Shown one piece after another: positions 6,561 to 34,957 of a stretch of 37,530 bases of DNA. Position 1 is the stretch's first letter. Each line of letters opens with the position of its first letter. The notes under the pieces are model-generated. The model was not told the DNA's origin and did no database searches. It saw only the letters and a list, made by a program, of their open reading frames with translations. Source of the DNA: an uncultured Candidatus Saccharibacteria bacterium. Lineage in GTDB: Bacteria > Patescibacteriota > Minisyncoccia > Sungbacterales > SURF-37. Where the stretch lies: positions 1-37,530 of the forward strand of contig CAYIQX010000002.1 in the NCBI GenBank assembly GCA_964365675.1, given 5' to 3'. Position numbers and translations under genes: made by a program.

Positions 6561-6561
6561 C

Positions 6562-9194: not shown

Positions 9195-9208
9195 GCTTAT
9201 CTTTCGCA

Positions 9209-10366: not shown

Positions 10367-10383
10367 TCCGGGAAGACCGTACC

Positions 10384-10803
10384 ATGCAGCAATTTCAGGT
10401 TCCCCAATTCATCAACATCGAGGACCGCATCATTGGGCCGCTGACGCTTAAGCAGTTTCTGTATCTTCTTGGTGCGGCGGCGATCGGCATAGTGGGATGG
10501 TCATTCCTCCATTTCATTCTTTTTGTCCTTATACCGCTGCCGTTTGCCGGTCTCTTTATCGCGATGGCATTCGTAAAGATCAGTGGGCGCCCTCTTCCCG
10601 AAATTTTTTTTGCCGCAGTCAATTATTACCTCCGGCCGCGACTATACCTCTGGCGAAAAATTCCTGAAAAGAAAAAAATCGCCGCTGTCCCCGCGGCCAA
10701 GGAAGACCTGCTCCTTGCCGGCGTACCGAAATTTTCAAGCTCAAAACTCAACGACCTGGCCTGGAGTTTAGATATCAAGGAACGCCTCGGTAAAGAAAAC
10801 TGA
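10384..10803 (+). CDS. PrgI-family (VirB3-like) T4SS membrane protein
   Basis: MQQFQVPQFINIEDRIIGPLTLKQFLYLLGAAAIG is followed by two TM helices, the characteristic PrgI N-terminus. GTG 10363, overlapping the upstream stop, is an alternative start. Confidence 0.75.
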   Translation: MQQFQVPQFINIEDRIIGPLTLKQFLYLLGAAAIGIVGWSFLHFILFVLIPLPFAGLFIAMAFVKISGRPLPEIFFAAVNYYLRPRLYLWRKIPEKKKIAAVPAAKEDLLLAGVPKFSSSKLNDLAWSLDIKERLGKEN

Positions 10804-10805
10804 TC

Positions 10806-13339: not shown

Positions 13340-13835
13340 CGATAGACAAGTAAAAGATACCGCGCGGCGTATTCAGTGGCGAGAAGCCATCGCGCCGCGT
13401 CTCCAGCCGATCGTCACTCGTGTGGCCGGAGCGATCGCCGAGCGACTGAACCGCGAGATCGAAGCTGGCCATGATGCTTCCGTGTTTATCTTTGCGCTTT
13501 GGCTAGCCATCCTAAAGGACGGACTCCTGGATTGGGGCCTCAACCTTATCGGCATCGGCCTTATTCCGATCGTTGGGCAAATACCGGGATGGCTTGTGTC
13601 GGGCATCCTCTACTATTTCCTTTGGGGGAAGGGCTGGTTCCGAAGGACAAAGATCCGTGTCGGTTACTGGGTGCTTGCCCTTTTCTTCGACAACCTGCCC
13701 GGCTTTGAGGAGCTCCCGCTTACGACCATCGAGGTCTGCCTTGCCTGGTGGATGATCCGGCATCGCGCCCGACAGGCAGAGACGGAACTGCGGGCCCATG
13801 AGCAGAAAATGCGTGCTACACTAGAAGCGGGCTAA
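13332..13835 (+). CDS. Small multi-pass membrane protein, unknown function (operon gene 8)
   Basis: ATG 13332 overlaps the virB4 stop (ATGGATGA). There are 3-4 hydrophobic helices (VFIFALWLAILKDGLL, IGIGLIPIVGQIPGWLVSGILYYFLW, VGYWVLALFF, IEVCLAWWMI). The track ORF from 13209 lies inside virB4 and is not credible. Confidence 0.65.
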   Translation: MDDDRQVKDTARRIQWREAIAPRLQPIVTRVAGAIAERLNREIEAGHDASVFIFALWLAILKDGLLDWGLNLIGIGLIPIVGQIPGWLVSGILYYFLWGKGWFRRTKIRVGYWVLALFFDNLPGFEELPLTTIEVCLAWWMIRHRARQAETELRAHEQKMRATLEAG

Positions 13836-13839
13836 TAAA

Positions 13840-15126
13840 ATGACTGCCTCTATACAAAACACACTTCTCCTGCTCCCCGCTGCTGTCCTGACTTTGACTA
13901 TTTCGACTGCGTTCCTGCCCGCGGGCGCCGCGGTAACGCCGATATTCACGCTCCTTGTTTCCCCGGAACTCCCCGTGACCGGCGAACGGGTCACTATTTC
14001 CTCGCTCGCCACGAATTTTACCGCCTCTACGACCGTCTTCACCTGGTTCCGCGAGGACGTAGCCGTGCCCATTGCATCTGGCAAGGGTTTGTCAAAAATA
14101 TCCCTTACCTCGACTCCCCAGGCCAACGGCGCGATGCGAATTCGCCTTGAAGTTGATCCTGGAACGGGCTTCACGCGCAAGAGTGAAACCACTACTATCC
14201 TCGTTCTCCCCTCCAGCGCCGTCAGCGGGGGAGCTGCCGACGAGCAACCCGTCGAAGACTTCACCCTCGAGGCCTCAAGTATAAACCCAGACGCCGGGGA
14301 GACAGTAACCCTTGAAGTGGTCACGTTTGCTTTTGACCGGGCTGTCGCTTCATACCGCTGGTACACTGATGGCGTTCTCCAGCGCGATGCCAGCGGCCGC
14401 GGACGCTCCCGATTTAGTATGCAGGCGGGGAGCGAAGGGACCGCGAAAAATATCCGCATCGAAGTCACTCTGCCGAACGGCAACGTACGCGCCAAAAGCA
14501 CTGTCATCCAAACACTGTCTGCACCCCTCTATTGGTGGACTGATACGGTCGTTCCGTACTGGTACAAAGGTAAGGCCCTCCCCGTCGTCGGCTCCACGGT
14601 GACCATCTTTGCCCTGCCCAACATACGAAATTCGTCCAACGTCTCCCACCAGTGGCGCACGAACGGCTCAGTCGACGTGAGCGCATCGGGAACGGCCAAG
14701 CCAACCTTCTCTTTGCGTCTTAACTTCCCCGTGGCCGAAGAGATCGAGGTCAGCATGCGGGACTCCCTCGGTACGTTTGCCAAAACAGCACGCGTGGAGA
14801 TCGAGCCGGTTCTCCCGAGCGTAGGAGTATACGAGCTTCGGCCGCTCTCGGGGGTGGCATTCGAGCGGTCGCTCAAGGAATTTTCCGCCCCGGCCGGGGA
14901 ACCGTACGACTTTCTTGCTACCCCGTTCTTCTTCCCCCAAGGTCAGTCGCCCCGGTATACATGGACCCTGAACGGTGAACCGATCTCCGGGACATTCACC
15001 AATCCGTGGCGTTTCACGCTGGAGAGCGATCCCGGAGAAACGTCAGTAAACGATCTCCGTCTTGAAGTCGCCGGAGCGCGAAATGCCCAACGCGCGGCAA
15101 GTAACGTCCGCATTAATCTTCGCTAA
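13840..15126 (+). CDS. Secreted protein with four beta-sandwich (Ig/PKD-like) repeats
   Basis: A signal-like N-terminus is present (LLLLPAAVLTLTISTAFLPAGAA). Four units of about 95 aa share the pattern P..GE.VT......, aromatic-x-W-x-x-[DN]G, ...F.L (TWFREDV, YRWYTDGV, HQWRTNGS, YTWTLNGE). Confidence 0.72.
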   Translation: MTASIQNTLLLLPAAVLTLTISTAFLPAGAAVTPIFTLLVSPELPVTGERVTISSLATNFTASTTVFTWFREDVAVPIASGKGLSKISLTSTPQANGAMRIRLEVDPGTGFTRKSETTTILVLPSSAVSGGAADEQPVEDFTLEASSINPDAGETVTLEVVTFAFDRAVASYRWYTDGVLQRDASGRGRSRFSMQAGSEGTAKNIRIEVTLPNGNVRAKSTVIQTLSAPLYWWTDTVVPYWYKGKALPVVGSTVTIFALPNIRNSSNVSHQWRTNGSVDVSASGTAKPTFSLRLNFPVAEEIEVSMRDSLGTFAKTARVEIEPVLPSVGVYELRPLSGVAFERSLKEFSAPAGEPYDFLATPFFFPQGQSPRYTWTLNGEPISGTFTNPWRFTLESDPGETSVNDLRLEVAGARNAQRAASNVRINLR

Positions 15127-15695
15127 TGAAACTTTCTCCTCTTCTTCAAACAGTTGGTACCTCGATCATCCTTTGTACGGCCATTATAGCGCTCGCGTCA
15201 TTGGTGCCGGCCGCATACGCGGCAGACGACCATCCCACGGTCAGAGCCGACGGCACGAGAGAGGGGGGAGGAGGAGAAGGGAGCGGCGGCGGAGGAACAA
15301 AAGATGGTGGCGGAGGTCAAAAAAATCCTGATGTGGCGGGATATCTTACTCAAGTTTACCGCTGGTTCCTTGGATTTATCGGTATTGCCGCTCTCTTCGC
15401 CCTCGTGACCGGCGGCGTACTTTGGATGGCCTCGGGCACGAGCGTCACCGACGTGGGGCGGGCCAAACGGTGGATATCAAATGCCATTTGGGGCATCGTG
15501 CTCGCCGCCGCATCGTTTCTCCTTTTAAAAACTATCAACCCGGAACTCGTCGGGGGATTTGATATCAACGCGGTGATAGACCGGGCAGTGCGCGCTAAAT
15601 TGCAAAAGCCATCGCCGGATACCATCACCCCGGGGCCAAATGTAATCCCGCGAAAGCCCGACCCCGGCGGAGTAAACACGTCAGTCGGAAACTAA
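15126..15695 (+). CDS. VirB2/TrbC-like T4SS pilin candidate
   Basis: There is a signal peptide ending AYA|ADD, then a Gly-rich spacer (GGGGEGSGGGGTKDGGGG). A two-helix hairpin follows (FLGFIGIAALFALVTGGVLWM - basic loop GRAKRW - ISNAIWGIVLAAASFLLL), then a tail of about 50 aa. The TAATG overlaps the upstream gene. Confidence 0.6.
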   Translation: MKLSPLLQTVGTSIILCTAIIALASLVPAAYAADDHPTVRADGTREGGGGEGSGGGGTKDGGGGQKNPDVAGYLTQVYRWFLGFIGIAALFALVTGGVLWMASGTSVTDVGRAKRWISNAIWGIVLAAASFLLLKTINPELVGGFDINAVIDRAVRAKLQKPSPDTITPGPNVIPRKPDPGGVNTSVGN

Positions 15696-15699
15696 ATCC

Positions 15700-16857
15700 A
15701 TGAGCCGCAAGACCTCCATTGCCATCGCCGTCCTCCTGCTGGTAAGCATTGGTGTTGCCGTGTTCTTCTTTTTTGGTTCTCCGGGCAGTCCGTCTGACCA
15801 GCCGCGCTTTGGGAATCTTCCCATTATCGGCGGCCGTGCCCCGCTTCCTCTTCCTCTTCCTCCGCCGCCCGCAAACGGTATACGGCCGGAAGAGGTAGGG
15901 GCACGGCTCCGTCAAATCATTGACAAAAACATACTCGCACCAACCCTCTCCGGGGACCAAAAATCCATCTACTTTGTAGATCGCGCCACCGGCCATCTCA
16001 TGGCAAGTGACTTAGACGGGAATACCGAGACCGCCCTCGCCAACCTTACCGTACTCGAGGCGTTTGAAGGATTCTGGTCGCCGCTGAAAACAAAAATAGC
16101 GCTTTTTTATCACGAGAGCGGCATGGTGAAAAAATTCATAGAGGAAGTAGCCACGGGCACCCCTTCGCGCTTCCTCTCTTCGGATGTTCAAGCGTTTGCC
16201 TGGTCGCCGGACGGGAAAAGCATGGTCTACCTTCTTCGCCAGAATGCGCAAATGAATCTCGTCATTGCCGACCAGCTGAACCGTTCGAGCCGTGTTGTTT
16301 TCTCCACGCCGGTGCCGGACTTCACCCTCCGGTGGATCTCGACAAATACCATACTGCTTGTTTCAAAGCCGTCAGGACTCGCGCCATCGCTCCTCATGCG
16401 TTTTGATGTCGCCGCCCGCCGGGCCGATCCGATCCTCGCGGGCGGGCGGGGGGTCATCACCCTGCCGCTTCCGGACGGTAGCGGATTCGTATTCTCCCAG
16501 TCGTCCGAGCGCGGCGAGGCCCAGCCGCTTATGCTCTACACGTTCAAGGATGCCAAGATCACGCCGCTTAATATAGTCACCCTCGCCGAGAAATGCGCGT
16601 CAGCCCCGGATTCCAAGAACATCTATTGCGGTGTTCCGACCGGCACCATCCGCATTCCATCGCCGGATGAGTGGTACCGTGGCGCGGTTTCTTTTTCCGA
16701 TTCCATCGCCACCATTGATCTCTCTGCCGGCAGTACCCGCGTGCTTCTCGAGAACGGACCCGACCTTGACGTGGTCTCGCCGTTCACGAGCGCCGATGAG
16801 CGTTTCCTTTTCTTTCAGGACAAAAAAACCGGCGCGCTTTGGCGGCTGACGCTATAA
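15700..16857 (+). CDS. Membrane-anchored TolB-like beta-propeller protein (last operon gene)
   Basis: There is an N-terminal TM and a PLPLPLPPPP linker. Repeated propeller-blade-like motifs are present (FAWSPDGKSMVYL, LPDGSGFVFS, SADERFLFF). Confidence 0.7.
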   Translation: MSRKTSIAIAVLLLVSIGVAVFFFFGSPGSPSDQPRFGNLPIIGGRAPLPLPLPPPPANGIRPEEVGARLRQIIDKNILAPTLSGDQKSIYFVDRATGHLMASDLDGNTETALANLTVLEAFEGFWSPLKTKIALFYHESGMVKKFIEEVATGTPSRFLSSDVQAFAWSPDGKSMVYLLRQNAQMNLVIADQLNRSSRVVFSTPVPDFTLRWISTNTILLVSKPSGLAPSLLMRFDVAARRADPILAGGRGVITLPLPDGSGFVFSQSSERGEAQPLMLYTFKDAKITPLNIVTLAEKCASAPDSKNIYCGVPTGTIRIPSPDEWYRGAVSFSDSIATIDLSAGSTRVLLENGPDLDVVSPFTSADERFLFFQDKKTGALWRLTL

Positions 16858-18553: not shown

Positions 18554-19000
18554 CTACGGATACGGTTTAATAACGACGCGGCGGGAGTCGCCCTCGCCGA
18601 TGGACTGGGTGATGATGTCCGGATATTCGGCCAGCGCCATATGGACGATGCGCCGCTCAAAGGGCGGCATCGGCGCAAGCGCAAGCTCGGTGCGGTACAG
18701 GCGCACCCGCTTGGCTATACTCTTGGCTTCGCTTTTCAGTTCGTCGAGGTGATGCAGACGATAGCCGTTGACGTCGAGAAAAAATCCCGCGCTCTCGGGG
18801 CCCTCGCGTTCAGCGATCCGTTTCAGGAGATACTCAAGCGCCCAGAGATTCTGGGCGCGGGCTCCGATGAGCAGTCGGGCATCATCCGTAATGACGTTCA
18901 GATAGGGGATGGAGATCTCGGCGATGGTCCGTTCCTCAACGTCAGCCCGCACGCCCATCTTTTGCAGGATCTGATTGATGTGTTCGCTGACCGCGCTCAT
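18554..19000 (-). CDS. jag: Jag/KhpB-type RNA-binding protein (KH + R3H)
   Basis: HINQILQKMGVRADVEE..., YLLKRIAE and the C-terminal R3H-like ERRIVHMALAEYPDIITQSIGEGDSRRVVIKP are present. The gene sits in the conserved position downstream of yidC. Confidence 0.85.
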   Translation of the reverse strand: MSAVSEHINQILQKMGVRADVEERTIAEISIPYLNVITDDARLLIGARAQNLWALEYLLKRIAEREGPESAGFFLDVNGYRLHHLDELKSEAKSIAKRVRLYRTELALAPMPPFERRIVHMALAEYPDIITQSIGEGDSRRVVIKPYP

Positions 19001-19712
19001 AGGACATGCGCCACTCAATAAAACGTTGCTGGAGTATAGCAAGCAGATTGAATATTGTCCAGTAAAACGCGAGGGCTGACGGTAGCGACCAGGAGATGGC
19101 GGCGATGATGACCGGGAAGACATAGCGCGTTTGCCACTGCAGCATGGCGCTAAAGTCGGCGCCCCCCGCGGCGGGAGTGGCCAGCTGGGGCTGCGGAGTG
19201 AAATATCCTTGGAGGAACTGCGACACGCCGGCGGCGATGGCCAGCGGGATACTTGCTTGGGTAAGATTGAGGAGACCAAAGGCAACGGGATTAAAAATCT
19301 CGAACGGCGGCAGGAACGAATACAGAAGCGAACGGTCGGTCAGCGAAAGGCCTTTCCAGAAAAGGCGATAGAGGCCGATGAGCACCGGCAATTGGATGAG
19401 TAGCGGCAGACAACCCGAAAGGGGGTTCACGCCCTCGGCCCGGTAGAGTGCCATCGTCTCCTTGGCCTGCGCTTCCTTATCGCTCTTGAAACGCTGCTGG
19501 ATCTCTCGAAGCCGCGGCTGGATCCTCGTCATGGCGCGCTGGGAGCGAATGGTCTGGCTGATGGCCGGATGGAGAACGAGACGCACGATCAGCGTCAGCA
19601 TGATAATAGCAAGCCCCAGATCGTGATAGGGAAGGAGGAGGTAGATCCCCACGAGGCCGTTGAGAAGCGGCCGGTAAATAATTTCGTTGTAGAGAAGCGA
19701 AAGAAAACTCAT
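18942..19712 (-). CDS. yidC: Membrane protein insertase YidC (short, monoderm type)
   Basis: MTRIQPRLREIQQRFKSDKEAQAKETMALYRAEGVNPLSGCLPLLIQLPVLIGLY is present. ATG 19712 overlaps the yidD stop (ATGA). The 5' extension in the track ORF overlaps yidD and is rejected. Confidence 0.9.
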   Translation of the reverse strand: MSFLSLLYNEIIYRPLLNGLVGIYLLLPYHDLGLAIIMLTLIVRLVLHPAISQTIRSQRAMTRIQPRLREIQQRFKSDKEAQAKETMALYRAEGVNPLSGCLPLLIQLPVLIGLYRLFWKGLSLTDRSLLYSFLPPFEIFNPVAFGLLNLTQASIPLAIAAGVSQFLQGYFTPQPQLATPAAGGADFSAMLQWQTRYVFPVIIAAISWSLPSALAFYWTIFNLLAILQQRFIEWRMSYERGQRTHQSDPAKDGRAG

Positions 19713-19936
19713 GGCAAGGGATCGTATCCGCCCGAAGACCAGGGATTGCAGCGCATAAGGCGCCCAAGAAGGAACATAAAACCGCGTACTAGTCCATATT
19801 GACGGAGCGCCTCCAGCCCATACCCTGAACAGGTAGGAGAAAATCGGCAGCCGCCCGGGACGATGGAGAACTGATGGAAAAGCGGAGCAATAAGGAGACG
19901 ATAGATCTGAATACAATGGATGGATAGAGTATTCAT
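19709..19936 (-). CDS. yidD: Membrane protein insertion efficiency factor YidD
   Basis: IQIYRLLIAPL...GGCRFSPTCSGYGLEALRQYG...RLMRCNPW is present. An ATGA overlap links it to rnpA. Confidence 0.9.
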   Translation of the reverse strand: MNTLSIHCIQIYRLLIAPLFHQFSIVPGGCRFSPTCSGYGLEALRQYGLVRGFMFLLGRLMRCNPWSSGGYDPLP

Positions 19937-20295
19937 GGCCGCCGGAGAAAATGTTCTAGTTGCCGCGAGAGTTCAAGGGCCGCGACATTCCGCGCACGGT
20001 CCGAAAGGCGGAGTACCGCGGGGTCTATATAAACAACCGCCGTGATGGGGAGCGGCTCCCGCCGCCACTGCCGCCGGAACGCCTCGGTCATCTGTCGGCG
20101 CATGCGGTTGCGGACCGTACTCTTTTTAGAAACCGTTTTCGGGACGACGAAAAGCACTCGTGCGTCTGCCGAGCTCCGGGCGCGGGTCCAGACGACCCGC
20201 CCGAGGTCAATCTTGGCACGACGGCCATGACGAAGTGTCCCCGCAACATCCTGCCGCCCCTTGAACCGAAAGGTCCGACGGGATTTGCCGCTCAT
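19933..20295 (-). CDS. rnpA: RNase P protein component
   Basis: This is a basic 120-aa protein ([25 protein letters not shown]) lying between rpmH and yidD. An ATGA overlap links it to rpmH. Confidence 0.85.
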
Positions 20296-20426
20296 ACGGT
20301 CAGCCGGCGGCGGCCCTTGGCGCGACGGCGTGCGAGGGTGCGGCGGCCGCCGGGCGTGCGGCTCCGCTTCCGGAAACCGTGAACGCGCTGACGCTTTCGC
20401 CGTTTGGGCTGGTAGGTTCGCTTCAT
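20292..20426 (-). CDS. rpmH: 50S ribosomal protein L34 (not in the ORF track because it is under 60 aa)
   Basis: Hand translation of the minus strand gives [44 protein letters not shown], 44 aa. AAGAGG lies about 10 nt upstream. Confidence 0.95.
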
Positions 20427-20656
20427 AATCTAGTTGCCTCTTGCTTTAAAATCCAGGAAACCGTATCCCATAGTATATCCTCCCTCCCGACCGGCGCAAC
20501 TCATTTTCCCGCCGCTCTATCGTCTCCACAGATTATGAACATGTTGTAAACAAAGCACCTCCTTTTGTGCATTTCGCCCACACCGGTATAGTGAGCATAC
20601 TTTAACCCAGCATTGAAAAAGCACTCACTCTCTCAAGGTATCGCACCCAAACCAAC

Positions 20657-22039
20657 ATGATGAGCCGGGAAGAGATCTGGAAAAACGTTCTTGCCGAGAT
20701 AGAGCTCACCACCTCGCGGGCAAGTTTCATCACGTGGTTCCAAGAAACAACTATCGCTGATATTGCCGAGGGCGTCGTAACCGTTTCCGTGCCCAACGGT
20801 TTCGCGAAAAACTGGCTCCAAGACAAATACCACAAGCTGATCCTCCGTTGCCTCCGGGGACTCCTCGGCGATACCCGCGAAGTGGCCTATGTGGTGGGGG
20901 CACTCGACCGGCCACTCTCCCAGATGCGCCCGAAGGTCCGCTCCATACCCAAACCAATGTTCATGGAGCCGCAGGAGCGCTTGGAACTAAAGGACGGCAC
21001 GGCTGATCCCGAAAGCGGGTTGAACCCCCGCTACCTTTTTGAGAATTTTGTCGTGGGGTCCTTCAACGAGCTACCCCATGTGGCCGCGCAGGCGGTATTG
21101 AAAAACCCCGGACTTACCTACAACCCGCTCTTCATCTACGGCGGGGTTGGCCTCGGTAAGACTCACCTCATCCAGGCGATCGGCAATGAGCTCTTGCAAC
21201 GGTGTCCGGGAACCAAGGTCCGTTACATCCCTTCAGAAAAATTCATGGGTGAGATTGTGGACGCCATTAATACCAGGACGATGAACCAATTGAAGGAGCG
21301 GTACCGGAGCGTAGATCTTCTGATTATGGACGACATCCAGTTCATTGCCCGCACCGAAAAAATGCAGGAAGAATTCTTTCATGCTTTCAATGCGCTCTAC
21401 GAGCGGAACAAGCAGATAGTCATTTCCTCCGACAAGCCGCCCGCGGCTATTCCGACGCTGGAGTCACGCCTCCGCTCGCGCTTCGAGGGCGGTATGATCG
21501 CCGACATCGGCGCGCCGGACTTCGAGACGCGTCTTGCTATTCTGAAAACGAAACTCCGGATAAAAAATCTTACCCTGCCGGACGACATAGTCGAATACGT
21601 TGCCGAGACTATTACGTCCAACATCCGGGAGCTCGAAGGCGCTCTCAACCGCCTAATTCTCCGTACCACCATGACCGCCTCGCCTCCAAACATTGATGAG
21701 GCTAAGCGCATCCTGGCCCAGGTATCCGCCGCACCCAAGCGCTTCGTATCGCCAAAGAAAATTATCCGCACCGTTTCCGAATTTTACGATGTTACAGAAA
21801 AAGAGCTAGTAAACCGTAGCCGGAAAAAGGAAATTGTAAAACCGCGTCAAATAGCCATGTATCTCCTCCGGGAGGAGTTGAAGTGTTCCTTCCCTTTTAT
21901 TGGGGAAAGGCTTGGGAAGAAGGACCATACCACTGCTATCCACGCGTATAAAAAAATAACCGCCGCCCTCCCTACACATCCCGAACTTGATAATGAATTA
22001 AAAACCCTGAAGGAAAAAATCTATTCTCCCCCCATGTAG
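20657..22039 (+). CDS. dnaA: Chromosomal replication initiator DnaA
   Basis: Walker A GGVGLGKTHL, DLLIMDDIQF, the sensor/box VII region, and the C-terminal DNA-binding motif IAMYLLRE...IGERLGKKDHTTAIHAYKKI are present. Confidence 0.97.
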   Translation: MMSREEIWKNVLAEIELTTSRASFITWFQETTIADIAEGVVTVSVPNGFAKNWLQDKYHKLILRCLRGLLGDTREVAYVVGALDRPLSQMRPKVRSIPKPMFMEPQERLELKDGTADPESGLNPRYLFENFVVGSFNELPHVAAQAVLKNPGLTYNPLFIYGGVGLGKTHLIQAIGNELLQRCPGTKVRYIPSEKFMGEIVDAINTRTMNQLKERYRSVDLLIMDDIQFIARTEKMQEEFFHAFNALYERNKQIVISSDKPPAAIPTLESRLRSRFEGGMIADIGAPDFETRLAILKTKLRIKNLTLPDDIVEYVAETITSNIRELEGALNRLILRTTMTASPPNIDEAKRILAQVSAAPKRFVSPKKIIRTVSEFYDVTEKELVNRSRKKEIVKPRQIAMYLLREELKCSFPFIGERLGKKDHTTAIHAYKKITAALPTHPELDNELKTLKEKIYSPPM

Positions 22040-22230
22040 AGAGGGGATTGGTTGTGAATAATAAAGGGAGAAGTTCTATACATAAATATCCTTCTTTTTT
22101 CCTTTTTAATTTATCCACAAACTACTAATAGATATTTCTCATAAGAAAGTATTAAAAAGGAGAATAAAACCAGTATTAATTATTCAATCCCCAGTTTATT
22201 CTTTTTAATAATAGTAATAATAAATAAAGT
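22040..22230. other. Probable oriC: AT-rich unwinding region with DnaA boxes between dnaA and dnaN
   Basis: This 191-nt spacer is very AT-rich in an otherwise GC-rich window. It contains a perfect TTATCCACA and a one-mismatch box TGTGAATAA (22053-22061), plus long A/T runs at 22190-22230. Confidence 0.7.
22111..22119 (+). promoter_or_regulatory. Consensus DnaA box TTATCCACA
   Basis: This is an exact 9/9 match to the canonical DnaA box. Confidence 0.8.
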
Positions 22231-23331
22231 ATGAAAATAGTTTGTACTACGGATAAATTAAAAAATGCGGTCATTACGGTGGAGCGTTTTACTGGGCGTC
22301 ACATTACCCTTCCAATTCTTTCTCATATTCTTTGCCGGGTAGAAGAAAAAAAGATTTCTTTTATTGCAACCAACCTTGAAGTTGGTGTTGAATATCACCT
22401 TACGGGGAAAATACAAAAAACCGGGGTGGTTACTATCCCCGCAAAGCCGTTTTCTCAACTTCTCTCATCCATCCGCGATGAGACAATTATATTAGAAGGA
22501 AAACAACACCACCTTATTCTTCACACTCCCACATCCGATATTAATATTCTTGGGTTAAACCCGTCCGATTTCCCTTCACTCCCGGTGATTAAAAAAGAAT
22601 ATTCATTCATCCTAGCGGCGGAATCGCTGGTAGCCGCACTTCAGCAGGTTGTGCCGGCGGCGGCGGTTTCAGATCTAAAACCAGAACTTTCAGGTATACT
22701 CTTCTCTATCGGTCCGGATTCAATAGTTCTCGCGGCCACAGATTCATTCCGGCTCGCTGAAAAGACAATTAATATCTCTGACGGCTTAAAAGAGCGCAGA
22801 GAGTGTATTGTGCCTCTTCGGACAGCACAGGAACTCATCCGTACGCTTTCTTTAGACTCGAGTGAAGGCGTTCGTATTAGTATTGGTGAACATCAAGTGA
22901 TATTTGAGTGGGGGGTTACCCGGGTCTTGTCGCGGCTTATTGATGGTGCCTACCCGCCGTATCAGAACATTATTCCGGCCGCCTATGAGACGACGCTTCT
23001 GGTGAATCGGGATGATTTTTTAAAAAAGATACGCTTGGCGGCGGTTTTCTCAAGCCGATTGAATGATGTAACCCTTCGTTTTTCACCGACCGAGCTTGAG
23101 GTGGCGACCACGAATGCGGAGACCGGCGGGACCACCAGCCGGATAAGCGCGAAAGGGCGCGGCGCTTCCAACTCAACCGTATTCAACTACCGCTATCTTT
23201 CCGACGGCCTCGAGGCCGCAGGGGGGGAGAATATTATTTTAAATCTAAACGGCGTCTCCGGCCCCACGCTTATCCAAAATCCGAGCGACAACTCTTACCG
23301 TTATCTCGTGATGCCGATCCGAGCGGTCTAG
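22231..23331 (+). CDS. dnaN: DNA polymerase III beta sliding clamp
   Basis: The gene sits directly after dnaA and encodes 366 aa. The pattern is typical of the family: ...ILSHILC...ATNLEVG..., ATDSFRLAE, RLIDGAYPPYQNIIP, and the C-terminal YLVMPIR. Confidence 0.93.
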   Translation: MKIVCTTDKLKNAVITVERFTGRHITLPILSHILCRVEEKKISFIATNLEVGVEYHLTGKIQKTGVVTIPAKPFSQLLSSIRDETIILEGKQHHLILHTPTSDINILGLNPSDFPSLPVIKKEYSFILAAESLVAALQQVVPAAAVSDLKPELSGILFSIGPDSIVLAATDSFRLAEKTINISDGLKERRECIVPLRTAQELIRTLSLDSSEGVRISIGEHQVIFEWGVTRVLSRLIDGAYPPYQNIIPAAYETTLLVNRDDFLKKIRLAAVFSSRLNDVTLRFSPTELEVATTNAETGGTTSRISAKGRGASNSTVFNYRYLSDGLEAAGGENIILNLNGVSGPTLIQNPSDNSYRYLVMPIRAV

Positions 23332-27380: not shown

Positions 27381-27866
27381 TCAGGCGACCCGCCTCGTAT
27401 AGAGCGCGGTCAGCGCGATGGCAATGGCGTCGATCGCATCATCTCCCTTGGGGAGTACAGCCTTCGGTAGGAGGGCTTGCACTCCGCGATAGACCTGCAT
27501 TTTGTCAGCCCGCCCGTATCCTGTTACCGCAAGTTTCACCGTCAGCGGCGCGTATTCCCAAATGCTAGGGACGAGGCCGCGGGCTGTCAAGAGGATTATC
27601 CCCCGCGCTTCAGAAACCGCAAGCGCGGTTTTGGTGTTGCGGGAGAAGTACAATTTTTCGACGGCCACGGCCGACGGCCGGTCGCGCCGGAGGCGTTGAT
27701 CAATGGCCTCGGCAAGGGCCAAGAGACGATCGGCCGGAGCTTGTCCGCCCGGGATGGTAATAGTCTCGGCCGAGAGCAGTTCAGGAGTGGGCCCGCCGCC
27801 ACGCACGAGTGCATAGCCGATGCGGGTGGTACCGGGATCAATGCCAGCGATGAGGGGTGGGATCAT
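27381..27866 (-). CDS. ruvC: Holliday junction resolvase RuvC
   Basis: IAGIDPGTTRIGYALV (catalytic Asp), VAVEKLYF and DDAIDAIAIAL are present. An ATGA overlap links it to yebC. Confidence 0.92.
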   Translation of the reverse strand: MIPPLIAGIDPGTTRIGYALVRGGGPTPELLSAETITIPGGQAPADRLLALAEAIDQRLRRDRPSAVAVEKLYFSRNTKTALAVSEARGIILLTARGLVPSIWEYAPLTVKLAVTGYGRADKMQVYRGVQALLPKAVLPKGDDAIDAIAIALTALYTRRVA

Positions 27867-28591
27867 GAGGCGAAATCGATATTCGTGGAAACGGTGGTTA
27901 CGTCAGGGTGCTTTTCAAGAGCGTCTTGAAGGATTTCGGCCCGTTTCAGGTCCTCGGGCGTTAGCGCGAGCGCGGTCTTGGAGATCATCGCGGTGGCACT
28001 CCCGATCGTTTTTAGGCCGTGGCGAGCCATGGCTGCCTGGAATGATTCAACGGACTCCACGGGGATGAGCGCTACGAGCCCGTCAGGGTCGGTTTCGATG
28101 TCAACCGCACCGGCATCAATGAGGATAAGCGTTATGCGGTCTCGCGCTTCGGCATCGGGGAGGGGAAGGGTTATGAGCGCACGACGCTCGAACATCCAAG
28201 CAACGCTCCCCGCTCCGGCGAGTTTTCCTCCGAACTTGGAGAGGACGGCCCGCATCTCGCTTGCCGTGCGGTTGGCGTTATCCGTAATGGCGTGGATAAG
28301 ATAGGCGCTGCCGCCCGGGCCGTAGGCCTCGTATTTGCGCGAGACCAGGGTGTCCTTGTCCAGGGTCCCCCTAGCACGGCTGACGGCGCGTTCAATATTT
28401 TCTTTCGGCAGTCCCGCGTCCTGGGCCTGCTCCATCGCAGTACGGAGTTTTGCGTTGGTAGCGGGGTCAGGCGCGCCCTCCCGGCCGGCAATAGTGATGA
28501 GGCGCGAGAGTTTAGAAAAGAGAGCGCTCCGCTTGGCGTCCGTTCCGGCTTTTTTGTGTTTTACCTGCGCCCAGCGGGAATGTCCGGCCAT
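27863..28591 (-). CDS. yebC: YebC/PmpR-family transcriptional regulator
   Basis: MAGHSRWAQVKHKKAGTDAKRSALFSKLSRLITIAGREG... is the hallmark N-terminus of the family. Confidence 0.93.
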   Translation of the reverse strand: MAGHSRWAQVKHKKAGTDAKRSALFSKLSRLITIAGREGAPDPATNAKLRTAMEQAQDAGLPKENIERAVSRARGTLDKDTLVSRKYEAYGPGGSAYLIHAITDNANRTASEMRAVLSKFGGKLAGAGSVAWMFERRALITLPLPDAEARDRITLILIDAGAVDIETDPDGLVALIPVESVESFQAAMARHGLKTIGSATAMISKTALALTPEDLKRAEILQDALEKHPDVTTVSTNIDFAS

Positions 28592-28660
28592 GGGGGGTAA
28601 AATCGCAAATTACAATTCCCAAACTACAAACTTTTTGTGATTCGGCGCTTGGAGTTTATA

Positions 28661-29206
28661 CTACTTCGGTTCTGGAGATGCAGTTGGGGGCGCCGCTCCT
28701 TCAACCGGGCGCTGCTGCCGGGAGTATTGGAGAATGAGGTCTTTAGCGCGGTTGAAGTCGGTAACAGCCGATACGGTGAACTCGCCCGCGCCGGCCGTCT
28801 GGATTTTTATATTCCCGAACTGCATCATCGTGGCGAAGAAACCCGGGATCTCTACCGTGACGTTCTGGATACGATCAAGCGACATTTCCGAAATTTCCCT
28901 GCGGAAAAGGGTTTTTTGTTCGACGTCAATAATGCGCTCGCTTGTGATGATCCAGACGTCAAGATAGTACTCCAGCCAGCGTATGAGCATATAGACGAGC
29001 AGGCCGGCGAAGTACAGCGCGAGGAAAAAATCCGCTACCGGTTCAATAGTCGGGGAGGAAAAAAGTGGGAGATACACGCGTACGGCAATGAAGGCGATAG
29101 GCGGGGCGAGGAGGAGCAGGAAAAACGTCAGTGTCGGGCCGGCAAAAACTATCCAGTGCCGCCGCATGGTCAGGAGGATTTTTTCCGTCGGGGCGAGCGT
29201 GAGCAT
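28661..29206 (-). CDS. Membrane protein with bacterial PH (bPH_2, YdbS/YdbT-like) domain
   Basis: Two N-terminal TM helices are followed by DVWIITSERIIDVEQKTLFRREISEMSLDRIQNVTVEIPGFFATMMQFGNIKIQTAG. Confidence 0.72.
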   Translation of the reverse strand: MLTLAPTEKILLTMRRHWIVFAGPTLTFFLLLLAPPIAFIAVRVYLPLFSSPTIEPVADFFLALYFAGLLVYMLIRWLEYYLDVWIITSERIIDVEQKTLFRREISEMSLDRIQNVTVEIPGFFATMMQFGNIKIQTAGAGEFTVSAVTDFNRAKDLILQYSRQQRPVEGAAPPTASPEPK

Positions 29207-29210
29207 GCGG

Positions 29211-29408
29211 CTATCGGGGGATGCGTAAGAGCGAGACCAGTGCTAGCCCGAGAAATATCAATGCCAGGGTTGCATAGACCGGGATGACAATTTTCGGCGC
29301 GGTCCAGCCCGGCAGGGTGTAGTGGAGGAGGTGATAGATGACGGCCGCGCTGAAAAAAATATCCGCCGCGATGAAGGCAAAGAAAAACGAGAGAAGCGCT
29401 ACGAACAT
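29211..29408 (-). CDS. 65-aa two-TM membrane protein
   Basis: ATG 29408 lies 1 nt after the ruvB stop. The sequence begins MFVALLSFFFAFIAADIFFSAAVIY...IVIPVYATLALIFLGLALVSLL. The longer track ORF overlaps ruvB and is rejected. Confidence 0.55.
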   Translation of the reverse strand: MFVALLSFFFAFIAADIFFSAAVIYHLLHYTLPGWTAPKIVIPVYATLALIFLGLALVSLLRIPR

Positions 29409-29409
29409 A

Positions 29410-30420
29410 TTAGGCGTCGATAAGCCGCGGCTGATCCGGATAATCAGCGCCGAGATGTGCGAAGGCGAGGCGCGTGGCGACGCGGCCTCGGGCGGTGCGT
29501 TCCAGAAGTCCCAACTGCATGAGGTAGGGTTCGTAGACCTCCTCAATGGTGTCTTCTTCTTCTGCGGTTGCCGCGGCAAGGGCAGAGAGACCCACGGGTC
29601 CGCCCTGGAATTTTCTCACAATGGTCTCAAGGATGCGGCGGTCCGTTGGTTCAAGCCCCTGGGCGTCTATCTCAAGCAGGCGAAGGGCGGAGCGCGCCGC
29701 CTCGGCAGTTACGTGCCCGGTGCCGTGGACCGCGGCATAATCGCGTACGCGCTTCAGGAGGCGATTGGCTACGCGGGGGGTCGAGCGCGCGGCAGAGGCG
29801 GTAAGTTCGATGGCCTCTTTGTCGGCATGAATGCGCAGGAGCGTTGATGAGCGAGTAAGGATTTCCTCGATGTCCCGGGTTGAGTAGAAATCCAGTCGGA
29901 ACGTAACGCCGAAGCGGGAGCGCAGGGGCCCCGAGAGCATGCCGACGCGGGTGGTGGCCGCAATAAGCGTGAAAGGCGGGAGCTCGAGCTGGATGGTCCG
30001 GGCCGAGGGGCCTTTGCCGATAATAATATCAAGGGTCCGCGACTCCATGGCCGGGTAGAGTACCTCTTCGATGAGCTTATTCATCCGGTGCGCTTCATCA
30101 ATAAAAAGAATATCTCCGGGAAGAAGATTGGTCAGGATGGAAGCAAGATCGCCCACCCGTTCTATAGCCGGCCCCGAGGTGATGCGGATGTTCGTATTTA
30201 GTTCCCGGGCAATGAGATGCGCCAAGGACGTTTTGCCAAGTCCCGGCGGGCCGTAGAGGAGAACGTGCTCGATGGGTTCATTGCGCTGGCGCGCGGCGGC
30301 AATAAGGATCTTCAAATTGTCCTTGACGATGGTCTGGCCAATAAATTCATCCCAACGCTGCGGGCGGAGTGCCTGATCAAGGGCGGTATCTTCGTGTTTT
30401 TGTTTTGGCTCGGTTTCCAT
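29410..30420 (-). CDS. ruvB: Holliday junction branch-migration ATPase RuvB
   Basis: [12 protein letters not shown], Walker [10 protein letters not shown], Walker [10 protein letters not shown], and the sensor/[15 protein letters not shown] region are present. The track start 30441 is TTG. ATG 30420 (METEPKQ...) with AAGGGA upstream is preferred. Confidence 0.95.
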
Positions 30421-30470
30421 AGTTCCCTTGGTAGCGGACAAAAGGCCTGCCTACGGCAAAATAGGTTGAT

Positions 30471-30499
30471 TTGACAACCTCCCTTTATATTGATATAAT
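30471..30499 (+). promoter_or_regulatory. Perfect-consensus sigma-70 promoter with no downstream plus-strand CDS
   Basis: TTGACA (30471-30476), an exactly 17-nt spacer, TATAAT (30494-30499), read directly from the sequence. Confidence 0.65.
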
Positions 30500-30505
30500 T
30501 ACGCC

Positions 30506-30721
30506 AATACGGCATGCAGGAGGGCTTGCGGCCCTCTTTCTCGTTGCCTCCCCTGGCTGTGGGCAATTCAGGTTGATTCGCGTTGGCCTGAATGGGGACT
30601 TTCTTTATACCCGATACCCCGGTTCCCGTCTCGCACGGATCCAACGGGGGTACTCGAATCGTAAGTCCTGACCTCCGCGCTCCCAAGCCGGAGAATTGCC
30701 CACAGCCAGGGGAGGCAACGA
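30506..30721 (+). ncRNA. Candidate structured non-coding RNA of unknown class (3' end undetermined)
   Basis: The predicted transcript start is about 7 nt after the -10. A GC hairpin lies at 30520-30536. A 29-bp perfect stem then closes a 123-nt interior that contains several further complementary segments. No credible ORF is present. The strand assignment rests on the promoter only. Confidence 0.4.
30541..30721. repeat. 29-bp perfect inverted repeat separated by 123 nt
   Basis: TCGTTGCCTCCCCTGGCTGTGGGCAATTC (30541-30569) is the exact reverse complement of GAATTGCCCACAGCCAGGGGAGGCAACGA (30693-30721). Confidence 0.95.
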
Positions 30722-30782
30722 CCTAGGGGTTGGGGGACAACCACGAACCACAACCTAGAACTTGCAACCGATAACCCATAAA

Positions 30783-32447
30783 CTATCCACTTCCCACCAC
30801 CCGCTCGACCTCGGGCAGATCGGTTATTCCCGCGAGCACTTTCAAAATGCCGTCCTGGCGCATGGATATCTGGCCCTGGGTCTTGGCCGCCGCTTTTATT
30901 TCCACCTCGGACGGACTCTTAAACATTAGCTGTTCGATCGTGTCATCCACCAGGATTATTTCAAAAACGCCGACGCGTCCCCTATAGCCCGTGCTATTAC
31001 ATTCGGGGCATCCCACCGCTTTCCATAGTGAGAGTGGTTCTTTTATTTGAGGTCTTGTCGCCTGCGACGGCATGGCGGCGAGGTCAGCTTCCAGTACTTT
31101 TCGCTCTTCCGGCGCGGCCGCGTATTCTTGACGGCATTTGATGCAAAGTTTTCGGACCAGGCGCTGGGCCATGGCGACGTTGATGGCCGGAGCCATGATC
31201 GCGGGGTTTACCCCGAGATCGAGAAGCCGCGGGATAGTGCCGGCGGCGTCATTGGTGTGGAGGGTGGAGAACACGAGGTGTCCGGTAAGCGCGGCGTGCA
31301 TCGCGGTTTTCGCCGTCTCGAGATCGCGTATTTCACCGACTAAAATAACATCCGGGTCCTGACGGAGAATGGAGCGCAGGCCAGAGGCGAAATCGTATCC
31401 TGATGTCGCTTCCACCTGCGTCTGCTCGATGCCGGTCAGGCGGTATTCTATCGGGTCCTCCAGGGTGATTATTTTTACCCCGGGCTTATGCGCCTCATGG
31501 ACAAAGGCATAGAGCGTCGTGGTTTTGCCTGAACCGGTGGGGCCAGTGGTCAGGATCATGCCGTTCGGCTTCGCAAGCTCCCCGGCCATGGCCTTTTCGG
31601 TCCACGTCTGCATGCCGAGGCCCCGGAACGTGATGGCAATGGCCTTTGGGTTCAGCACCCGGAGCACGATGTTCTCGCCGTACGGCCCGGGGAGCGTAGA
31701 GGAACGCACTTCCATATCCGCGCCGTCTATCTTTATCGTGAATCGTCCGTCCTGGCCGCGGGTCTGGACGTTCAGCTTCATCTCCGATATCAGTTTGATG
31801 CGCGAGAGCAAAAATTTATAGCTTGCCGGTGGGAGTCCGGAAACATCGGAGAGCACGCCGTCCAGCCGGTAGCGGAGACGCACGACCTCGGCTTGCGGCT
31901 CGAAGTGGATGTCGGACGCATCCACCTCCAGCGCGCCGGCCAGGATTATCTCCAGAATATCCGTGGCCCGTTTGGTCTCGACCCCCTTTAACAGTTCCGC
32001 GATATCAGCCATGGTTTTTACCTGGGAACGGAACTGCCCGAGGCGTTCGGAGGAAACATCAACTTCCCCGGTGATGGTGCGAGCTCTCCGCGCGATGTTG
32101 GCATACGCCGCCCAGACCTTTTCCAGACCCGCGCGGGAAACCATGAACAAGTCAACAGTATAGCGCCGGCGCTGGAGGTCTTCGAATATTGCTTTGGTCT
32201 TCGGCTGGTCGGGGTTTCGGAGCGCAACCTCGAGGCGCTTGCCGATTTTTTGGATCACGGCCATCTCCCCGGCGCGCGCTTCCTCCTCCGATACCAACGC
32301 GAGGGCATCCACGTTCACGGGTATCGTCGAAAGGTCGGCATAGGGAAGGCGGTACTTTTCGGAAAGCAGTTTTACGGTATCTTCCTCCTCCTTGCGGCGG
32401 AGTTTGGCGAGATGCTCTTCCTGTTTTTCCTCCTCAAAGGCAACCAT
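30783..32447 (-). CDS. pilB: Type IV pilus / type II secretion assembly ATPase (PilB/GspE family)
   Basis: An N-terminal GSPII_E_N-like domain is present. The motifs are Walker A TGPTGSGKTTT, DPIEY, VGEIRD (Asp box), GHLVFSTLHTN (His box), and the tetracysteine CIKC...CPECNSTGYRGRVGVFE. Confidence 0.93.
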   Translation of the reverse strand: MVAFEEEKQEEHLAKLRRKEEEDTVKLLSEKYRLPYADLSTIPVNVDALALVSEEEARAGEMAVIQKIGKRLEVALRNPDQPKTKAIFEDLQRRRYTVDLFMVSRAGLEKVWAAYANIARRARTITGEVDVSSERLGQFRSQVKTMADIAELLKGVETKRATDILEIILAGALEVDASDIHFEPQAEVVRLRYRLDGVLSDVSGLPPASYKFLLSRIKLISEMKLNVQTRGQDGRFTIKIDGADMEVRSSTLPGPYGENIVLRVLNPKAIAITFRGLGMQTWTEKAMAGELAKPNGMILTTGPTGSGKTTTLYAFVHEAHKPGVKIITLEDPIEYRLTGIEQTQVEATSGYDFASGLRSILRQDPDVILVGEIRDLETAKTAMHAALTGHLVFSTLHTNDAAGTIPRLLDLGVNPAIMAPAINVAMAQRLVRKLCIKCRQEYAAAPEERKVLEADLAAMPSQATRPQIKEPLSLWKAVGCPECNSTGYRGRVGVFEIILVDDTIEQLMFKSPSEVEIKAAAKTQGQISMRQDGILKVLAGITDLPEVERVVGSG

Positions 32448-33728: not shown

Positions 33729-33757
33729 TTGACAGGTTTAAATAGTTTATGTATACT
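33729..33757 (+). promoter_or_regulatory. Sigma-70 promoter for the 179-aa secreted protein gene
   Basis: TTGACA (33729-33734), a 17-nt spacer, TATACT (33752-33757). AGGAG lies 9-11 nt before ATG 33827. Confidence 0.55.
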
Positions 33758-33826
33758 GGGGTTAGTAGGTTTTTGCGCTGTTTCTCGGTTTTACTACGCC
33801 ACGCGTAGAGAGAGGAGAAGAGTATC

Positions 33827-34366
33827 ATGCGCAGACTGGCTTCGCTCGTTCTCATCGTTCTTCTGGTGAGTGGCATCGTTTTGGTGCCACCACCGCCGGT
33901 GGCCGAAGCCAACGGCGCCGCTGTAAACGCGGCGCTTGGCCTCGCGGCGTTCGCGGTCCTCGCCGTCGTGGTTAACGCCCTCACGCCGAAGCCGACGCAG
34001 GCGGCGGTTGTGGTGTACCCGCCGCCGCAACCGGTCGTGTCCGGTCCGGCGACCTACCCGTCCCCCCCGCCCCCGCCATTCGCTCCCCCGGCGACCGGTA
34101 CCGCGCCGGCGCCTGCGCAGACGGTTTACCCCGCGGCTATCCAGGGCGGTCTCACCGTGGGGAATTCCGTCGGTTCCCCCATCGATGTGTTCGTGAACGG
34201 CCAGTTGGTTCGTGCTGGCATGCCGCATGGGGAGGCCATAACGTTCAACATCCGCGGCAACGGGATAGTGCTGGCGCGCCTGCCGGAAGGCAGGTTTGCC
34301 CAGAAACAGTTCTGGACGGGCCAGCGGGAAGCGGTCATCTTCTCGGCATACGACTTCCCGCAGTAG
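33827..34366 (+). CDS. Secreted or membrane protein with a proline-rich linker and a ~80-aa C-terminal beta domain
   Basis: A signal/TM is present (LASLVLIVLLVSGIVLV), then a second hydrophobic helix and a PPPQPVVSGPATYPSPPPPPFAPP linker. The gene has its own promoter, RBS and terminator. The larger antisense ORF 33794-34549 is rejected. Confidence 0.65.
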   Translation: MRRLASLVLIVLLVSGIVLVPPPPVAEANGAAVNAALGLAAFAVLAVVVNALTPKPTQAAVVVYPPPQPVVSGPATYPSPPPPPFAPPATGTAPAPAQTVYPAAIQGGLTVGNSVGSPIDVFVNGQLVRAGMPHGEAITFNIRGNGIVLARLPEGRFAQKQFWTGQREAVIFSAYDFPQ

Positions 34367-34385
34367 CGGGGCGGGTAAGATCAGA

Positions 34386-34435
34386 CCCGAAGTATCAACG
34401 CGCAAAACGTTTGCGCGAAGATACTCCGGGTTTTT
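34386..34435 (+). terminator. Rho-independent terminator after the 179-aa protein gene
   Basis: The long hairpin is CCCGAAGTATC..CGCGCAAA-ACG-TTTGCGCG..GATACTCCGGG (34386-34430, one mismatch), followed by TTTTT (34431-34435). Confidence 0.65.
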
Positions 34436-34438
34436 CTC

Positions 34439-34957
34439 ATGGAACGAATCTGCTACCGTTACCTCATGCCGACATTCGTGTGCAAAAATGCCGCCGGAAC
34501 AAAACAGTTCGCCCGCCGCACTATTCAAAAACTTCTCGGAGTCGGTCATCGGCCCCTCGTCATTGCCCTTTCAGGAGAGCTCGGTAGCGGCAAGACCACG
34601 TTCGTCCAGGGGCTGGCGGGTGCTCTCGGCATCCGCCAGAGGGCCCAGAGCCCGACCTTTGTGCTCGTTAAGCGGTATCGGCTCGGCCGGCGCGCCGCGC
34701 CGTACCGTCATTTCATCCACGTGGATGCGTACCGGTTGCGGGGCGTTGGCGAAACGCGGGCGATCGGCCTTACGCACACCATCCGCGATCGCGATGCTAT
34801 CGTGGTCATTGAATGGGCGGAGCGGATAAAAAACCTTATTTCTAAAGGTGCGGCTTGGATTCGCTTTGAGCATATGAAGAAAAACGTCAGGGCTATATCG
34901 TTTGACGTTATTGGGGCGAAGGTCGGACGGCGAGGAACAAAGGCGAGCCACCTTTAG
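34439..34957 (+). CDS. tsaE: tRNA t6A37 biosynthesis ATPase TsaE (YjeE)
   Basis: ALSGELGSGKTTFVQGLAGALGI, SPTFVLVKRY, HVDAYRL and VIEWAE are present. ATG 34466 is a plausible alternative start, because ATG 34439 abuts the upstream terminator. Confidence 0.88.
   Translation: MERICYRYLMPTFVCKNAAGTKQFARRTIQKLLGVGHRPLVIALSGELGSGKTTFVQGLAGALGIRQRAQSPTFVLVKRYRLGRRAAPYRHFIHVDAYRLRGVGETRAIGLTHTIRDRDAIVVIEWAERIKNLISKGAAWIRFEHMKKNVRAISFDVIGAKVGRRGTKASHL

Follow-up and report, generated by a model that had tools for sequence, protein, structure and literature searches.

A putative stand-alone structured RNA gene between pilB and ruvB in Parcubacteria

We examined a 37,530-nt stretch of DNA (referred to here as the window), which comprises positions 1 to 37,530 of contig CAYIQX010000002.1 in assembly GCA_964365675.1 and derives from an uncultured bacterium labelled Candidatus Saccharibacteria that the GTDB taxonomy places within the Sungbacterales. 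This work concerns the segment that separates its ruvB gene from a pilB-like gene. Both genes are on the minus strand and are identified by their Pfam RuvB and T2SSE domains, in agreement with an earlier reading of the locus that was made from the letters alone (the sequence-only reading). On the plus strand, the interval between them contains a consensus promoter followed by a long inverted repeat that encloses smaller hairpins, and we regard it as a probable gene for a structured non-coding RNA (ncRNA). The features of the locus are as follows, in order along the window.

29410..30441, minus strand: ruvB, divergent from the putative RNA gene (Pfam RuvB_N, AAA_lid_4 and RuvB_C; probable ATG at 30432).
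30471..30499, plus strand: sigma-70 consensus promoter of the RNA gene (TTGACA at 30471-30476, a 17-nt spacer, TATAAT at 30494-30499, with TG just before the -10 box).
30518..30541, plus strand: 5' leader hairpin, (A)GGAGGGC-loop-GCCCUC followed by UUUCU, as read from the sequence and the fold.
30541..30721, plus strand: core structured RNA of ~181 nt, consisting of P1 and a four-way junction with P2, P3 and P4 (covariance model R1 and consensus fold).
30541..30569, plus strand: 5' strand of P1, which pairs over 29 bp when read simply as an inverted repeat and over 27 bp (30541-30567) when the fold accommodates the junction, with the conserved top GGGCAAUU.
30568..30591, plus strand: P2 hairpin, 10 bp in the window copy, the first 5 bp (UCAGG/CCUGA) being conserved as pairs and the loop variable.
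30594..30669, plus strand: P3 long arm, made up of P3a (GGGGACUU/AAGUCCU), an internal loop, P3b (30612-30620/30647-30656) and the apex (30622-30645).
30673..30693, plus strand: P4 hairpin, CUCCG-C-GCU-CCCA-AGC-CGGAG, with the CCCA loop at 30682-30685.
30693..30721, plus strand: 3' strand of P1, with the conserved top AAUUGCCC.
30723..30757, plus strand: imperfect downstream hairpin that is not followed by a U-run and is not conserved (fold, and comparison with the closest relative, L002, described below).
30783..32447, minus strand: pilB-like ATPase (PilB/GspE type) of a type IV pilus or type II secretion system, convergent with the RNA gene (Pfam T2SSE, E = 4.9e-114).

The promoter at 30471-30499, which the sequence-only reading had described as an exact TTGACA-17-TATAAT, is the only sequence in the window that matches the consensus at all 12 of its 12 positions. 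With one mismatch or fewer allowed, the window contains three matches as compared to 0.05 expected from shuffles, and the near-consensus promoters elsewhere in it precede ordinary genes with Shine-Dalgarno sequences, so the organism appears to use promoters of this kind. Transcription of the RNA is predicted to start at about 30505-30507. The GC hairpin reported earlier (GAGGGC-TTGCG-GCCCTC, 30520-30536) is present as described and is followed by TTTCT, and the reported inverted repeat is likewise exact, as its 29-nt arms at 30541-30569 and 30693-30721 are 100% complementary and have 123 nt between them. No such repeat occurred in 100 shuffles, and the window holds no second copy. The minimum free energy of the fold of this region is -134.6 kcal/mol (z = -7.7).

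Homologues of the element are found at the same place in many related genomes. A 20-mer from the stem, searched against 596 Gb of genomes, identified one true relative, a metagenome-assembled genome (MAG) of the candidate phyla radiation (CPR) that we call L002. Two further 20-mer matches, in Holophaga and in a member of the Gemmatimonadota, lie inside coding sequence and were set aside as chance, about one such match being expected in 596 Gb. L002 shares with the window the exact TTGACA-17-TATAAT promoter, the small hairpin and the element in full, with an RNA that is 96% identical (BLASTN) and a RuvB protein that is 93% identical to those of the window; the flanks are not alignable. The relatives of its RuvB place the window among Parcubacteria-type Patescibacteria. 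In loci around such relatives, a search with nhmmer located the element in 14 more genomes, immediately upstream of ruvB and in the opposite orientation, and single-sequence folds of these copies reveal a common architecture despite their differing stem sequences. A pattern based on P4 that was scanned across 185,579 species genomes matched 25 contigs once each, and each contig came from a different MAG; all 25 are labelled as CPR (Sungbacteria, Parcubacteria or automatic ‘Saccharibacteria’ labels). The covariance model R1 produced full-length matches in 48 further genomes, to which a second model, R2, added three, so that at least 51 other Parcubacteria/Patescibacteria genomes carry a homologue at the same place. 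The carriers include Sungbacteria, Giovannonibacteria, Spechtbacteria, Zambryskibacteria and Paceibacteria, and their RuvB proteins are ~60-93% identical to that of the window. The gene order pilB, RNA (on the opposite strand), ruvB recurs in the loci that were checked, including those found with the pattern, and a pilB-like gene lies next to the RNA in 18 of 20 and in 12 of 14 loci; in the remainder, a different gene gives the best open reading frame (ORF), or the sequence of the locus or contig stops before one is reached. Collections of phage, plasmid and IMG/VR sequences contained no match to the element. The sequence-only reading had reasoned that many copies would indicate a mobile element, and that syntenic single copies with compensatory changes would indicate a structured RNA; it is the latter that was found.

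The helices of the RNA change by compensatory base pairs, which points to selection on RNA structure. In an alignment of 15 sequences produced with MAFFT and analysed with RNAalifold, four helices are recovered, and 34 of their 58 pairs show compensatory changes. In a larger alignment of 44 sequences, 93.6% of the cells are paired as compared to 71.8% after shuffling, 48 of the 58 pairs change on both sides, and the covariation score is 0.623, as compared to 0.213 after shuffling and 0.10-0.16 with slid partners; none of 500 shuffles reached the observed values for pairing or covariation. Compensatory changes occur in 22 of the 24 modelled pairs of P1, a helix with a median span of 26 bp (mostly 21-30, with few mismatches, counted from the top A-U pair, the two conserved U-A pairs being extra) whose arms are conserved towards the junction and vary towards the outside. 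All five modelled pairs of P2 covary, as do seven of the eight pairs of P4, and the C-rich loop of P4 (CCCA or CCA type) recurs across subtypes. The base of the long P3 arm, GGGGAUUUU/AAAAUCCU in the RNAalifold consensus, is closed by a G-U pair; this closing pair of P3a is nearly invariant (alignment pair 107-345 is G-U in 40 of the 44 sequences). A tandem G-U of the UGGU/ACUG type is conserved in P3b, where most sequences have U-G at alignment pair 142-323 and G-U at 143-322, and the apex of P3 is variable, with homologue insertions of up to ~80 nt. The homologues measure 163-259 nt, with most at ~180 nt. Three further complementarities inside the repeat had been proposed from the letters of the window, and two of them, 30595-30601 with 30663-30669 and 30615-30620 with 30647-30652, belong to the conserved P3 arm. 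The third, the crossing pair of 30575-30580 with 30655-30660, is not conserved among the homologues. The segment 30575-30580 falls in the non-conserved distal part and loop of P2, and its match to 30655-30660 is one of sequence only.

The strand on which this fold is selected can be read from the same data. Among the paired cells there are 305 G-U or U-G combinations as compared to 51 A-C or C-A combinations, and several of the G-U pairs are close to invariant. The R1 model scores the window copy at 173 bits on the plus strand, in a match that spans the whole model, and at 49 on the minus strand. The excess of G-U pairs, which would be mismatches on the minus strand, argues that the selected fold is that of a plus-strand RNA, antisense to ruvB and pilB.

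The promoter is conserved together with the fold. An exact 12/12 TTGACA-N17-TATAAT occurs once in each of 41 loci (a count that includes a few duplicates of the same contig), always on the strand of the RNA, and it lies between the start of ruvB and the RNA wherever coordinates were compared. The distance between the -10 box and P1 varies from 5 to 293 nt across the homologues. Only 5-24 nt separate the -10 box from P1 in members of the Giovannonibacteria type (5-9 nt in three of them), so that the transcript there appears to start at or near P1. The leader hairpin is also a feature of some lineages, as most homologues of the Sungbacteria type, which includes the window copy, have an A(A/G)GGAGGG-loop-CCCUC hairpin with a U-run in the interval from promoter to P1 (its carriers include L002, L005, L007, L008, L012, L015, L023, L025, L086, L090 and L098) and those of the Giovannonibacteria type do not. 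This hairpin resembles an attenuator or terminator; alternatively, it could stabilise the 5' end of the RNA or give a tiny transcript of its own. Its 5' arm is similar to a Shine-Dalgarno sequence, and the leader of L090 contains a second terminator-like hairpin. At the other end of the RNA, roughly half of the homologues (L002, L010, L011, L014 and L033 among them) carry a U-run immediately 3' of P1, and in L002 it directly follows P1, in the place of the downstream hairpin of the window. AT-rich homologues have an A-run 5' of P1 as well as the U-run 3' of it, and on account of this arrangement P1 looks like a bidirectional terminator in these members.

A variant of the RNA, missed by both R1 and R2, occupies the same position between pilB and ruvB in Kaiserbacteria-type genomes, at the following coordinates.

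L044, 2734-2876, minus strand: Kaiserbacteria-type variant.
L037, 2729-2871, minus strand: Kaiserbacteria-type variant.
L043, 2742-2874, minus strand: Kaiserbacteria-type variant.
L042, 158-282, minus strand: Kaiserbacteria-type variant.
L050, 2683-2816, minus strand: Kaiserbacteria-type variant.
L041, 2661-2791, minus strand: Kaiserbacteria-type variant.
L039, 2697-2820, minus strand: Kaiserbacteria-type variant.

Where a promoter was found for these variants, it is a near-consensus TTGACA-16-TATAYT. In their RNA, a long P1 that includes GCAAUU is combined with a long arm, which carries an AGGAC...UAUCCU helix, and with a CUUUC-loop-GAAAG hairpin; there is no P2, which results in a three-way junction, and the helices covary too. 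Some loci, among them L061, L055, L072 and L033, bridge the two types; they have in P3 the common internal-loop helix AGGAC...UAUCCU. Separately, a second long-stem element is located between yebC and ruvC in a Spechtbacteria MAG (L020, 6189-6354, plus strand). It has a P1 of 27 bp with the top CUACAAGCAAUU/AAUUGCUUGUAG and a multibranched interior, it scores 26.7 bits with R2, and it may be a paralogue of the RNA.

The RNA matches no family in Rfam; the sequence-only reading had likewise been unable to match it to RNase P, tmRNA, SRP, 6S or tRNA signatures. A cmscan of the whole window against Rfam 15 (4227 families) gave no match at the gathering threshold, and ARAGORN found no tRNA or transfer-messenger RNA (tmRNA) genes in the window. 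When the 501-nt region of the element was searched at E values up to 10, the only matches were to Adenovirus VA RNA and drum, and both were attributed to chance. VA RNA resembles the window RNA in having a long terminal stem and a branched centre; its match (23.8 bits, E = 0.11) falls below the gathering score of 62 bits, contains many non-canonical pairs and comes from unrelated biology, and the drum match reaches only 14.1 bits (E = 4.7). At 30 related loci, 20 searched at the gathering threshold and 10 at E values up to 10, Rfam returned nothing at the corresponding position, and the window RNA had no Rfam match to 6S RNA, signal recognition particle (SRP) RNA, RNase P RNA, tmRNA or Y RNA. 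Several other identities were considered and rejected. For SRP RNA, RNase P RNA, 5S rRNA, a tRNA-like or Y RNA, a hammerhead and a K-turn, either the motifs are missing or the topology or helix order does not fit; SRP RNA has a conserved helix 8 with a GNAR tetraloop and symmetric/asymmetric loops at its apex, whereas here no part varies more than the apex of the long arm, which carries insertions. Neither ffh nor ffs was detected in Parcubacteria in an earlier survey (Nelson & Stegen 2015, PMC4508563). An anti-Shine-Dalgarno mimic (CCUCC in P4 and P1) was rejected since it is not conserved in the Giovannonibacteria type, a Holliday-junction mimic linked to ruvB since the Kaiserbacteria type has only a three-way junction, and a pseudoknot between the CCCA loop and UGGG since it shows no covariation and UGGG is absent in the Giovannonibacteria type. 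No description of the RNA was found in the literature on CPR and Parcubacteria ncRNAs, a search that most subscription-journal papers lay outside. The RNA is new, judged on its sequence, in the sense of a new RNA family: none of the 4227 Rfam families matches it, and it fails the tests applied for every family that was considered.

The element can be compared with several known kinds of RNA. Like the orphan, lineage-specific ncRNAs (raiA motif RNA, OLE, Bacteroidales-1, Chlorobi-1 and others of the Weinberg/Breaker type), it stands alone as a gene, is followed by no ORF on its strand, and has its own promoter, a terminator-like end and a covarying multi-helix fold; it occurs in one large lineage, and its function cannot be read from its context. 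It differs from them in being confined to Parcubacteria, in the unusual length and near-perfect pairing of its closing helix and in its strict linkage to pilB and ruvB, and in Rfam 15 it matches none of them. Bacterial Y RNAs (YrlA, which acts with Ro/Rsr) are of similar size and carry a multi-helix module on a long stem formed by their 5' and 3' ends. The window RNA also combines a long end-formed stem with a multi-helix module; however, its stem has no bulged Ro-type site, its neighbours are pilB and ruvB rather than rsr, and the Y RNA models do not match it. Processing stalks of the rRNA type and long bidirectional terminators share with it a long near-perfect helix formed by the flanks of the enclosed RNA, with a U-run after the helix in many members and an A-run before it in some, but the RNA enclosed here is neither rRNA nor tRNA.

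Taken together, these results favour, among the options raised by the sequence-only reading, that of a novel stand-alone RNA, as the copies are single and syntenic, their changes are compensatory, Rfam has no match, the promoter is conserved and the G-U bias lies on the plus strand. We think it probable, with room for real doubt, that the element is an independent gene for a stand-alone structured ncRNA whose P1 clamps its ends together and whose conserved surface binds protein, the family being apparently specific to Parcubacteria. RNA polymerase would start at the sigma-70 promoter at 30471-30499 and transcribe the plus strand, leaving ruvB behind and heading for the 3' end of pilB. In the lineage of the window, a short leader with the GC hairpin would be made first, followed by the ~181-nt core at 30541-30721, and the consensus promoter would cause the RNA to be strongly expressed. 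Once formed, P1 would lock the 5' and 3' ends together against exonucleases. The same helix would act as an intrinsic terminator, one that in AT-rich members would work in both directions and end the convergent transcript of pilB as well, and it could serve as an RNase III-type stalk that frees the RNA from its variable leaders and trailers. The conserved surface would be formed by the top of P1 (GGCAAUU/AAUUGCC) and the AAU-GGGG junction, together with the internal loop and tandem G-U of P3 and the C-rich loop of P4, and it is most probably a platform for protein, the complex acting in trans as a housekeeping ribonucleoprotein (RNP). A broader proposal, which we offer tentatively and hold at somewhat below an even chance, is that this is the first housekeeping-type RNA class specific to Parcubacteria or the CPR: an abundant, end-clamped junction RNA that forms an RNP with a lineage-specific partner and performs a core task. 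That task might be to compensate for machinery that these reduced genomes reportedly lack, such as ffh/ffs (PMC4508563).

Several points weigh against the interpretation as a stand-alone RNA gene. In the Sungbacteria-type homologues, the leader, which reaches 293 nt, contains upstream of P1 one or two hairpins with U-runs that resemble terminators, and by their sequence these hairpins could halt much of the transcription upstream of the RNA. The window copy has no U-run after P1, which leaves its 3' end undefined. The alignment of 44 sequences was fitted to the model and so leans towards structure, and it is the independent MAFFT/RNAalifold result with 15 sequences that agrees with its covariation. 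It is from sequence signals only that the RNA is predicted to be transcribed and that its ends and abundance are suggested, and the protein-binding and trans-acting parts of the proposal draw on analogy.

A different reading takes the element to be mainly a transcription boundary that acts in cis between pilB and ruvB, with the giant hairpin serving as a bidirectional terminator or RNase III site and the strong outward promoter insulating or tuning ruvB and pilB by antisense pairing or transcriptional interference, while the RNA itself would have no function. The geometry of the locus suits such a role, as the neighbours of the element are in every case pilB, convergent with it, and ruvB, divergent from it. 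The promoter is ~30-40 nt from the start of ruvB in all loci, and in the window the probable ATG of ruvB at 30432 is ~38 nt from the -35 box. A minus-strand promoter for ruvB was looked for in the window, manual reading included, and none was recognised; ruvB may, as judged from this arrangement, be transcribed from a promoter that overlaps that of the RNA, or by read-through antisense to the RNA gene. The A-run before P1 and the U-run after it in AT-rich members also agree with a boundary function, and a perfect duplex of at least 27 bp is a good RNase III substrate. However, a terminator or antisense target needs no conserved interior, and here P2, P3 and P4 covary and the junction nucleotides are kept across distant lineages. 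In addition, the 305 G-U as compared to 51 A-C combinations point to selection on the plus-strand fold and not on the strand with the sense of pilB and ruvB, and half of the homologues, including the window copy, have no U-run after P1. We therefore consider a purely cis-acting module unlikely. The related proposal in the sequence-only reading, of an antisense or RNase III-type processing element, survives as a possible side role of the long helix, but it does not account for the covarying hairpins or the strand-specific G-U pairs.

The RNA could instead be the parcubacterial equivalent of 6S RNA (ssrS), an abundant rod-shaped RNA that imitates an open promoter and thereby binds and inactivates the sigma-70 holoenzyme. 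The two are alike in several respects: the size fits (163-259 nt, ~180 in most), the RNA has its own strong consensus promoter of the housekeeping type, it is single-copy, lineage-wide and conserved in shape, and in the window P1 and P3 flank a central non-helical region with 24 and 23 nt on its two strands. Rfam found no 6S RNA in any sequence examined, and 6S RNAs are conserved more in shape than in sequence, and the general model has missed those of divergent lineages. On the other hand, the 6S models of Rfam, RF00013 together with its lineage-specific relatives, gave no match even at E values up to 10 in the window region and at 10 homologous loci, and the centre is not an open bubble but a closed four-way or three-way junction of covarying hairpins, in which P2 and P4 are kept by compensatory changes and each junction strand has only 1-3 unpaired nt. 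P2 is dispensable in some lineages, and in the Kaiserbacteria type, where it is absent, the 5' junction strand is ~1 nt long and offers no template strand for a product RNA. Moreover, P1 is a near-perfect A-form helix of ~27 bp that lacks regular bulges, and in 6S RNA it is such bulges that reportedly let the helices imitate B-form DNA. A 6S equivalent is thus quite unlikely in our estimation.

A mobile insertion, resembling a miniature inverted-repeat transposable element with 29-bp terminal inverted repeats, is rejected by the test that the sequence-only reading had proposed: it would explain the perfect 29-bp repeat enclosing 123 nt and the related long-stem element at a second site in one genome (L020, 6189-6354), but the element is present once in the window and once on each of the 25 contigs from different MAGs, it lies at the same locus in more than 50 genomes with RuvB proteins that are only ~60-93% identical, its arms covary and vary at their outer ends, with conservation confined to the inner ones (the reverse of transposon termini), no flanking duplication was noticed on reading, no systematic search for one having been made, and none of the phage, plasmid and viral collections contains it.

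Having set these alternatives aside as the less probable, we return to the stand-alone RNA gene. The RNA is kept at one locus across Sungbacteria, Giovannonibacteria, Spechtbacteria and Zambryskibacteria, and in altered form in Kaiserbacteria, so it likely matters to the cell; its gene has one of the best promoters of the region, and purifying selection on its fold is clear. The Parcubacteria form a very large and almost uncultured branch with tiny genomes and much unexplained biology. The alignment obtained here is ready for use as a covariance model in the annotation of CPR genomes, and the RNA is a concrete target for metatranscriptomics, pull-down and structure determination, as well as a candidate for a new RNP.

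The remainder of the window has several features of its own. No tRNA gene occurs anywhere in its 37.5 kb. At 27381-30441 on the minus strand, the genes are ordered ruvB, a 181-aa protein with a bPH_2 domain, yebC and ruvC, and Pfam found no ruvA beside ruvB. At 33729-34366 on the plus strand, a near-consensus promoter (TTGACA-17-TATACT), followed by a Shine-Dalgarno sequence and by an ATG at 33827, points to the plus-strand ORF 33827-34366 as the actual gene at this place; its N-terminus resembles a signal peptide, and the overlapping minus-strand ORF 33794-34549 has no Pfam match. A run of plus-strand ORFs at 5556-16857, most of them without a Pfam match, surrounds a VirB4/TraG-like ATPase (11489-13339), and this block may be related to type IV secretion or to pili. 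A 1038-aa UvrD/Rep-type helicase encoded at 1536-4652 on the plus strand is split by an intein, with the Pfam Intein_splicing and Hint domains located between the N-terminal and C-terminal domains of the helicase. Finally, yidC (minus strand), dnaA and dnaN (both plus strand) are positioned at 18942-23331, with a yidC-dnaA spacer of 740 bp, which places the replication origin region ~10 kb from the RNA gene.

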